Assembly: GCF_003334785.1 (NCBI RefSeq)
Contig: NZ_QOWV01000005.1
Length of the DNA stretch: 64,000 nucleotides
From: Escherichia coli
GTDB lineage: Bacteria; Pseudomonadota; Gammaproteobacteria; Enterobacterales; Enterobacteriaceae
Strand: one strand, 5' to 3'
Below, in pieces: positions 7,735 through 8,528 of this stretch. Under the pieces are notes generated by a model. The model was not told where the DNA came from and made no database searches. It worked only from the letters and a program-made list of their open reading frames with translations. The position numbers were made by a program, and so were the translations under genes. Every line of letters begins with the position of its first letter. The stretch's first letter is position 1.

Positions 7735-7774
7735 ATTTAATATCACCTAAAGAGAATTTGGTTAGCTCAAACTG

Positions 7775-8041
7775 TTGTGTGGATTTTCTGTGGTAGCGGA
7801 TCCTACCACGACTCTGCAGGTTAAAAACACTGGCAGTCTGAGTGTTAATCGGTATGGATGGATTAACATCTGGATGGCTATTTTAGGTCAATTCTTCACC
7901 CTATTTCCACTTTTTTTTGAATCGTGTCTCATTCTGTTAAAAACGTGGCTGGAAATTTTTCCTGACAATGCCGGCATTCTGCGTATTTATCTTTTGCAAT
8001 TTTCTGCCATTGTGGGGTATAAAACGCGGCGCGCGGCTTAA
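7775..8041 (+). CDS. yqgD: Small uncharacterized protein, probably yqgD; start uncertain
   Basis: 88-aa ORF in the metK-speA divergent region; assignment by position and size from memory only. Confidence 0.35.
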
Positions 8042-8253
8042 ATAAAAAGCACACGACGTTTCTTTCGTGTTGCCACTTCCAGCCGGGTTGAAATCAGAGT
8101 TTTGGCTTGTGGGTTCGTCTTAACAGGCGGCCGTGGAGGTGATACGAAATAATGAACCGTTGTCTGCTGCTTAACCTGTCTCACCGTTCTGGTGAAGATT
8201 CGTTCCCCGCACTCTGCATCTCTGCTTTGCATACCTGCCGATGTTATACCCAT
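8038..8253 (-). CDS. yqgC: Small uncharacterized protein, probably yqgC
   Basis: 71-aa ORF at the expected position and strand for yqgC; weak coding evidence. Confidence 0.35.
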
Positions 8254-8388
8254 CTCGGCGCTTCTCAGGATTCAAGAGCTGGTTACAGTTACTGAGGACT
8301 GAACAAGGGCGCTCTTGTAAAAACAAGAGTTTTCTCGTGGTTTCGCCGAACTTTCACACTTACGTTCGGTTATGTGCTTAATAATGTT

Positions 8389-8520
8389 ATGAAAAAGAAA
8401 CCGGTTGCGCAGTTGGAGCGTCAGCATTCACTGCTGGAAAATCCATGTGCTTATGGGTTGTTATCGCAGTTCCAGGCTGCGATAGTCGTTAACTGTTTTA
8501 CACTTAATAAAATAATTTGA
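8389..8520 (+). CDS. yqgB: Small protein YqgB (43 aa) immediately upstream of speA
   Basis: atg at 8389 translates to [43 protein letters not shown] then stop; absent from the ORF track because it is short. Confidence 0.7.
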
Positions 8521-8528
8521 GGTTCGCT

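Follow-up and report, generated by a model that had tools for sequence, protein, structure and literature searches.

What does a short perfect hairpin in the spacer between metK and speA of Escherichia coli do, and which of the small open reading frames (ORFs) around it are genes? We examined this question in a 64,000-nucleotide (nt) stretch of E. coli DNA (contig NZ_QOWV01000005.1 of assembly GCF_003334785.1), referred to below as the window, with all positions counted from its first letter. The window is K-12-type DNA, 100% identical to K-12 strains over 7600-8700, and its coordinates convert to K-12 MG1655 as 3,094,440 minus the window position, the window + strand being the K-12 minus strand. 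With the metK start codon on the complement of 7734-7736 and the speA ATG at 8529, the spacer covers 7735-8528 (794 bp), and every one of the 5426 complete E. coli genomes contained the metK-speA region. A first-pass annotation had reported a spacer of ~800 bp with three small ORFs (yqgD, yqgC and yqgB) and a hairpin followed by a T-rich stretch, all of which were recovered with the sequence and at the places described.

Judged by its conservation across related species, the hairpin is genuine, a + strand RNA stem-loop that has been maintained in evolution. It lies in the untranslated spacer between two translated upstream ORFs (uORFs), yqgG and yqgB, in the leader of the yqgG-yqgB-speAB mRNA. 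We tentatively favour the reading that it contributes to a Rho-dependent attenuator governed by yqgG, as a structural element or a pause element, and does not act as an autonomous intrinsic terminator.

Conservation and covariation of the hairpin

The upper stem pairs GCUCUUGU (8311-8318) with ACAAGAGU (8323-8330) around a loop at 8319-8322, and includes CTCTTGT (8312-8318), the loop AAAA and ACAAGAG (8323-8329), followed by TTTTCTCG (8330-8337). Folding also placed a lower stem beneath it, in which ACAAGGG (8303-8309) pairs with UUCU.GU (8332-8338). The run after the stem, UUUUCUCG with 5 U in 8, was invariant in Enterobacteriaceae and was itself predicted to pair with ACAAGGG. The folding energy of the hairpin was -8.7 kcal/mol (8 pairs, 3 G-C), with equivalent stems ranging from -6 to -12 kcal/mol across 73 species. 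The local fold had z = -2.2, with 4 of 200 shuffles folding equally well. Perfect stems of at least 7 bp numbered three in the spacer against 0.33 in shuffles, and one against 0.02 when a T-run was required. The hairpin fitted a lenient terminator pattern (8 pairs, 3 G-C, 5 T in 8) of which there were 18 sites in 10 kb against 10.4 expected. When judged from one sequence the hairpin is only mildly unusual. A scan of 7500-8800 against Rfam at E values up to 10 returned only two chance snoRNA matches.

We accept the hairpin as real on the strength of its conservation and covariation, and not of these single-sequence statistics. The metK-speA spacer from 75 other Enterobacteriaceae species was aligned with that of E. 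coli (76 sequences, 56 distinct at the hairpin), and the structure of the whole leader was assessed with RNAalifold and pair counts on 28 diverse sequences. Across the 56 distinct sequences 92% of cells were paired, compared to 42-55% when the partner was slid, and 39 cells carried double (compensatory) changes compared to 16 in shuffles. None of 500 shuffles matched the observed pairing or covariation, a result repeated on the 28-sequence leader alignment. Three of the eight stem pairs never varied and three carried compensatory changes. The pair 8315/8326 was U-A in 32 sequences and C-G in 20 (of 56), the closing pair of the stem was U-A, C-G or A-U, and the pair 8313/8328 was U-A or U-G, with the change from U-A to U-G in 22 of the 56 sequences. 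This last change keeps pairing only in + strand RNA, which counts against both a DNA operator and an RNA of the minus strand.

Around the stem, ~15 nt on each flank (ACUGAACAAGGGC and UUUCUCGUGGUUUC) were invariant in the 56 distinct sequences. A stem-loop after yqgG was also found in Serratia, Chania, Mangrovibacter, Cedecea and Yersinia, with differing upper-stem sequences. The layout of lower and upper stem (CAAGGG ... UUUCUUG) was kept in Serratia and Chania around a different upper stem, and in Yersinia the stem-loop after ACUGAA was kept without the U-run. The distance from the yqgG stop codon (8293-8295 in E. coli) to the stem was 15 nt in 44 species including E. coli and 8 nt in 14 species. 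The invariant ACTGAA (8299-8304) contains a TGA (8300-8302) that is out of frame in E. coli; in Mangrovibacter, and in the 14 species whose yqgG has 49-51 codons, this TGA ends the ORF.

Termination and translation in the speA leader

Published SMRT-Cappable-seq data place a transcription start site (TSS) at K-12 3086409(-), window 8031, with operon variants consisting of yqgB alone and of yqgB-speA-speB, and the speA 5' untranslated region (UTR) clone of Adams et al. starts at 8031 and ends at 8528. With the TSS given by two independent data sets, the hairpin lies ~280 nt inside the ~500-nt speA leader, in agreement with the first-pass annotation, which had placed it in the speA leader transcript.

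Premature termination occurs in this leader, as the first-pass annotation had supposed in proposing the hairpin as a possible terminator or attenuator, but published data show the termination to be Rho-dependent. A bicyclomycin-sensitive Rho termination region is reported at K-12 3086055 (window 8385; score 3.7, p = 9e-20), ~50 nt past the hairpin, downstream of yqgG and before speA. The read columns, as we interpret them, are 238 then 117 in untreated cells and 178 then 323 with bicyclomycin. Among published lacZ fusions carrying a 5' UTR only, the effect of rhoR66S was lost only for cyaA and eptB, so the speA 5' UTR alone carries Rho-dependent termination. The first-pass annotation had made its terminator depend on transcript 3' ends at the hairpin. 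In the complete curated Term-seq lists for three conditions (LB at an optical density (OD) of 0.4, LB at OD 2.0, and M63) no 3' end was present within 8241-8440, the hairpin included, and a plain terminator therefore fails, with the caveat that such lists apply thresholds. The published lists do contain 3' ends at 8145 and at 8586, the latter inside speA with a Rho score of 3.1. The 3' end at 8145 (K-12 3086295) is listed as 'antisense to yqgC'; it lies 3-4 nt past a domain that sequesters the yqgG Shine-Dalgarno (SD) sequence, at its 3' foot, and points to a stable ~115-nt RNA from the 5' part of the speA leader, with its 3' end directly upstream of the yqgG start codon.

The uORF just upstream of the hairpin, yqgG, is translated and had been overlooked by the first-pass annotation, and its presence requires the hairpin to be read differently. 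SPA-tagged YqgG was detected by Weaver et al. The yqgG ATG was kept in 75 of 76 sequences, with a length of 43-51 aa in most. The N-terminal half drifted freely while the frame stayed open, and the C-terminal motif TCRCYTH[LF]GASQDSRAG was nearly invariant in the Enterobacteriaceae alignment, followed by a tail of 0 to 6 residues after ...SRAG. In codons 36-44 the variable sites comprised seven third positions, three first positions (one of them Arg-synonymous, AGA/CGG) and no second positions; this avoidance of second positions indicates that the amino-acid sequence of YqgG is under selection. The motif RCYTHLGA[ST]QDSRAG was kept from Escherichia to Yersinia. YqgG homologues carry Pfam PF23505, and the family reaches Yersinia, Serratia, Chania and Chimaeribacter, always between metK and speA. 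A search with a YqgG profile hidden Markov model found Enterobacterales-type sequences only and says nothing on Vibrio, Shewanella or Pseudomonas. No run of Arg or other regulatory codons was found in the YqgG sequences.

The second uORF, yqgB, was the one sound entry in the first-pass list of small ORFs. Its translation is published, and Adams et al. list yqgB as a candidate regulatory uORF of speA without naming yqgG. The yqgB ATG was kept in 76 of 76 sequences, and YqgB matched PF11036 at E = 4e-33 and NF033844 at 90 bits (cut-off 35). Its stop codon overlaps the SD sequence of speA, 8 nt upstream of the speA ATG, and in species in which this stop has been lost the ORF runs on through the speA ATG (...EVRYV*), which indicates that the overlap with the speA start is maintained. 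A yqgB deletion in Salmonella (2026 paper) lowered speA and speB mRNA and enzyme (arginine decarboxylase) levels and caused acid sensitivity, effects that were ascribed to loss of the YqgB protein. The drop in speA and speB also fits a cis-acting role of the leader, and such a deletion would remove part of the speA leader together with the probable proximal promoter.

In Yersiniaceae, yqgG is present between metK and speA, with no PF11036 (YqgB) ORF called upstream of speA. The Chania leader appears to be much shortened ahead of yqgG and has no domain sequestering the SD sequence. From these arrangements the module of yqgG and hairpin looks older than yqgB and the anti-SD helix.

Several further helices of the leader were conserved (Table 1). 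The outer helix of the anti-SD domain, 10 bp formed by CACUUCCA..CG (8074-8085) with the yqgG SD sequence, was 100% paired and invariant, and a hairpin inside this domain (8115-8120/8125-8130) showed compensatory changes at five of its six pairs. Another covarying hairpin was located inside yqgG (8181-8195). The helix over the speA SD and AUG was 98% paired in the RNAalifold analysis, with one-sided changes only; ribosomes on yqgB would open it. A CCUG...CAGG helix inside yqgG (8234-8269), invariant in Enterobacteriaceae but by eye not kept in Chania, is not claimed here. The only C-rich, G-poor tract of the leader was 8149-8290, which corresponds to yqgG (C/G 1.5-1.8, C 31-35%), making it a candidate Rho loading (rut) site by base composition.

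The favoured reading joins these elements as follows. Transcription would start at 8031, and the C-rich, G-poor yqgG RNA would act as the Rho loading region. This region would be masked by translation of yqgG, or by a ribosome dwelling on the conserved C-terminal codons, and would be exposed while the yqgG SD sequence stays locked in the anti-SD helix. Loaded Rho would then catch RNA polymerase in the yqgG-yqgB spacer, where the stem-loop and the invariant GAGUUUUCUCGUGG may slow or pause it, and transcripts would end before yqgB-speA. On transcripts that are read through, translation of yqgB would open the speA SD/AUG helix and couple translation of speA to that of yqgB.

A number of points weigh against this reading. 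The lower stem and the anti-SD helix are invariant, and so lack covariation support. The candidate rut site was assigned by base composition, and the pause is predicted from the fit of GAGUUUUCUCGUGG, for an RNA 3' end at 8338, to the pause consensus G(-10) Y(-1) G(+1). The coordinate of the Rho region derives from windowed read ratios and does not place termination exactly at the hairpin, and a weakly protected intrinsic 3' end could drop out of the curated Term-seq lists through their thresholds. The '5' UTR' probe of the Adams et al. northern maps to 8533-8577, so that the blot is uninformative on RNAs ending at the hairpin. Finally, the proximal speAB TSSs inside yqgB bypass both hairpin and leader.

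An extension of the same scheme, which we regard as improbable, is that YqgG is a regulatory nascent peptide, besides or instead of a free small protein, with arrest at the end of yqgG brought about by a metabolite of the pathway (arginine, agmatine or a polyamine). By covering the rut tract, the dwelling ribosome would decide whether Rho stops the polymerase at the stem-loop. The invariant C-terminal QDSRAG of YqgG resembles the SecM arrest core, QGIRAG(P).

Alternative explanations and related leaders

A weak Rho-independent terminator or attenuator, in which the stem-loop and UUUU would release some polymerases to yield a ~308-nt yqgG mRNA and less yqgB-speAB, is an unlikely explanation. 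The hairpin does match the lenient terminator pattern, both T-run and stem are conserved in Enterobacteriaceae, such a hairpin arises in only 2% of shuffles when a T-run is required, and a terminator structure has been predicted in published work for the Shewanella speA 5' UTR. Against this, the stem looks weak in its folding energies, in E. coli and across species, and the terminator of metK has 10 pairs, 6 of them G-C; the supposed 'U-tract' UUUUCUCG is predicted to form the 3' strand of the conserved lower stem; the Yersinia hairpin has no U-run; and the sole alternative antiterminator pairing amounts to -4.2 kcal/mol compared to -8.7 kcal/mol for the hairpin. The sensitivity of leader termination to bicyclomycin and rhoR66S and the lack of a Term-seq 3' end at the hairpin under the three conditions argue in the same direction. 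At the other extreme, we give hardly any credence to readings that deny the hairpin an RNA function and see in it a palindrome arisen by chance or a DNA operator bound by a dimeric regulator. The substitutions in the stem, compensatory and wobble, are not symmetric when read as DNA, the hairpin lies in transcribed leader well downstream of the TSS, its sequence was unique within the window in a check for repeat families, and no LexA-box-like sequence was found in 7601-8700, although yqgC and yqgD are named in published SOS gene lists and the hairpin is only mildly unusual in a single sequence.

Two further proposals invoke a bound factor. A protein, a small RNA or an RNase might recognise the stem-loop with its invariant lower stem (ACAAGGG/UUUCUCGU) and so set the stability or translation of yqgB-speAB; candidates are ProQ or Hfq, a ribosomal protein, RNase III or a polyamine-responsive factor. 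Conservation of the lower stem and of the anti-SD helix could reflect such a factor; an upper stem that covaries freely beside ~15 invariant nt per flank is a pattern typical of sequence-specific contact next to a structural scaffold, and parts of the motif (ACUGAA, CAAGGG, UUUCU) are kept in Serratia and Chania. With no match to an Rfam family even at E = 10, no processed 3' end listed at the hairpin and no known partner, we doubt this explanation. Far less probable is a boxA-like Nus-factor site, in which CGCUCUUG (8310-8317), similar to the boxA of lambda or rrn, would recruit NusB/NusE and modulate Rho termination. A boxA-like sequence next to tnaC has been proposed to do so, and by eye GCUCUU and three further positions of the 13-nt rrn boxA consensus match in E. 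coli. BoxA acts as single-stranded RNA, however, and this segment is paired as the 5' arm of the conserved stem; the loop half of the supposed site is unconserved. Among the 56 distinct sequences a conserved single-stranded match to GCUCUUUAACAA was not found, as only E. coli-like sequences match. In 20 of the 56 the core has become CUCCUG and its pairing partner has changed with it, so the constraint is on pairing and not on boxA identity, and the boxA reading was rejected on this ground.

Comparison with characterised leaders separates the speA leader from one class and relates it to another. As in the trp, his and pyrBI attenuators, a leader ORF precedes a stem-loop with a T-run, biosynthetic genes lie downstream, and the leader ORF is translated (YqgG protein detected, ORF conserved). 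A mutually exclusive antiterminator was not found: the alternative for the 5' arm (ACAAGG with the CUCUUGU region) is the weak pairing given above, and RNAalifold proposes none. The speA leader also differs from these attenuators in its seemingly weak stem and U-run and in having no run of regulatory codons in yqgG, and its termination is Rho-dependent with no 3' end at the hairpin. With the yqgG stop 8-26 nt before the stem, a ribosome at the stop cannot occlude it. The speA leader is thus neither a classical trp/his/pyrBI attenuator nor a canonical intrinsic terminator. The pause hairpins of the his and trp leaders and pause sites used by Rho offer another likeness, namely a nascent hairpin followed by a match to the elemental pause consensus where Rho termination is detected; his-type pauses have 11-12 nt from stem to pause, whereas the speA hairpin stands 8-9 nt from the predicted pause, a terminator-like spacing.

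In function the speA leader resembles, by analogy, the tnaC-tnaA, speFL-speF and mdtU-mdtJI leaders, with a translated uORF of conserved C-terminus and Rho termination before the main gene. It shares with tnaC-tnaA a short leader ORF that is translated and conserved in its C-terminal part, termination by Rho in an untranslated spacer between leader ORF and structural genes, and a candidate rut site at or next to the leader ORF, so that ribosome occupancy could control the access of Rho. The conserved stem-loop in the spacer, the second uORF yqgB coupled to the enzyme gene, and the placement of the uORF SD sequence in a conserved anti-SD helix are features of the speA leader that set it apart from tna; the peptides are unrelated, and for speA an effector or ribosome stalling is a proposal only. 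The speFL-speF-potE and mdtU-mdtJI systems, the mdtU uORF having been identified in the same study as speA (Adams et al.), likewise concern polyamine synthesis or export and combine a long 5' UTR, a translated uORF and premature Rho termination. They differ in that the regulatory role of the speA uORFs is only suggested and speA is not known to respond to ornithine or spermidine, and their peptides are unrelated in sequence to YqgG (PF23505). Features expected of a Rho attenuator that the speA leader displays are translated, conserved uORFs in a long leader from the 8031 TSS, C-rich, G-poor RNA over a uORF (by composition), a peptide C-terminus under selection, and, from the published data, a Rho region between yqgG and speA and a Rho-sensitive 5'-UTR-only fusion.

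Remaining features of the spacer and significance of the leader

Table 1. Genes, candidate promoters and RNA structures of the metK-speA spacer (window positions; SD, Shine-Dalgarno sequence).
Feature	Positions	Strand	Basis and remarks
metK	6580-7734	-	RefSeq annotation, ORF list; divergent neighbour
yqgD	7790-8041	+	RefSeq annotation; ORF list
Putative distal promoter of yqgG-yqgB-speAB	7994-8023	+	-35 TTGCAA 7994-7999, 18-nt spacer, -10 TATAAA 8018-8023
yqgC	8038-8253	-	71-codon ORF; missing from current RefSeq table; antisense to yqgG
First leader hairpin, GCACACGA / TCGTGTTGC	8049-8073	+	RNAalifold; G-C to A-U changes (covaries)
yqgG anti-SD domain	8074-8141	+	CACUUCCAGCCG (8074-8085) with CGUGGAGGUG (8132-8141)
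yqgG	8152-8295	+	RefSeq annotation; 47 codons (47 aa)
Hairpin and conserved flanks	8299-8343	+	Covariation, folding energies, invariant columns
Second spacer hairpin, CCGAAC / GUUCGG	8346-8369	+	3 of 6 pairs compensatory (A-U to G-C); 93% of cells paired
yqgB	8389-8520	+	RefSeq annotation; 43 codons
Probable proximal speAB promoter	8458-8495	+	TTGTTA 8458-8463, 17-nt spacer, GATAGT 8481-8486
speA SD/AUG helix	8485-8530	+	GUCGUUAACU (8485-8494, inside yqgB) with GGUUCGCUAU (8521-8530)
speA	8529-10505	+	Biosynthetic arginine decarboxylase; RefSeq annotation, ORF list

Although annotated, yqgC and yqgD are probably not genes. Neither was conserved as an ORF outside Escherichia, neither showed codon periodicity, and neither YqgC nor YqgD matched an NCBIfam family; the length of the yqgC ORF varied between 2 and 140 aa among species. 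For yqgC, Weaver et al. detected neither ribosome density nor a tagged protein. The yqgD ORF precedes the TSS at 8031 and is antisense to the promoter and 5' UTR of metK. The first-pass annotation had already doubted that these two frames are coding, a doubt that conservation and the published yqgC data bear out. On the minus strand the first leader hairpin (8070..8051), followed by TTTTTATT/GCTTTTTATT, fits a terminator pattern and could halt antisense transcription in the yqgC direction before the promoter region. ExcludonFinder classes yqgG-yqgC as a divergent excludon.

The hexamers at 7994-8023 would form the distal promoter, the -10 and TSS block being nearly invariant in the 76 sequences. 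Inside yqgB, TTGTTA-N17-GATAGT is probably an embedded proximal speAB promoter. SMRT-Cappable-seq TSSs are published at K-12 3085946, 3085945 and 3085928 (window 8494/8495 and 8512), and those at 8494/8495 fall 7-8 nt past GATAGT. Two invariant blocks of yqgB within 8455-8495, GGGTTGTTATCGC and TGCGATAGT, contain this sequence and form a perfect 7-bp hairpin at 8463-8483; conservation of the 'YGLLS' and 'AIVV' motifs of YqgB may in part reflect a DNA or RNA constraint. On the metK side, published TSSs lie at 7872 and 7792. A ~50-nt block at 7835-7885 (AGTCTGAGTGTTAATCGGTATGGATGGATTAACATCTGGATGGCTATTTT), 90-98% conserved across the 76 sequences, is situated just downstream of the TSS at 7872, where the 5' UTR of metK begins on the minus strand, and a promoter-like site on that strand (-10 ending at 7880) fits this TSS. 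No tandem MetJ box with at most 5 mismatches was found in 7601-8700. A perfect 7-bp hairpin (GTGGTAG-CGGATC-CTACCAC) at 7790-7809, located at the annotated yqgD start and beside the metK TSS at 7792, was poorly conserved.

Published work already covers the uORFs yqgG and yqgB, the long leader and its Rho sensitivity, and yqgB-speA had been put forward by Adams et al. as a candidate uORF system. The present analysis adds the conservation, judged from covariation, of the hairpin and several other leader helices; the assignment of yqgG, rather than yqgB, to the rut-like tract just before the termination zone; and the failure of yqgC and yqgD in comparative conservation tests. The locus is a probable further case of a uORF-controlled Rho attenuator, in a very well-studied locus of the best-studied bacterium.

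With these results, a description that had amounted to a Rho-terminated 5' UTR with a uORF becomes a layout that can be mutated part by part: the anti-SD helix, yqgG with its rut-like tract, the stem-loop at the termination zone, and the coupling of yqgB to speA. Phenotypes reported for yqgB deletion may be cis effects on speAB. To our knowledge, the older literature describes repression of speA by polyamines (putrescine) without a molecular explanation. The arginine route to putrescine begins with speA, and if YqgG does act as a nascent peptide, the leader would supply a mechanism for this long-reported repression, and the phenotypes ascribed to the YqgB protein would in part be cis effects of the leader.

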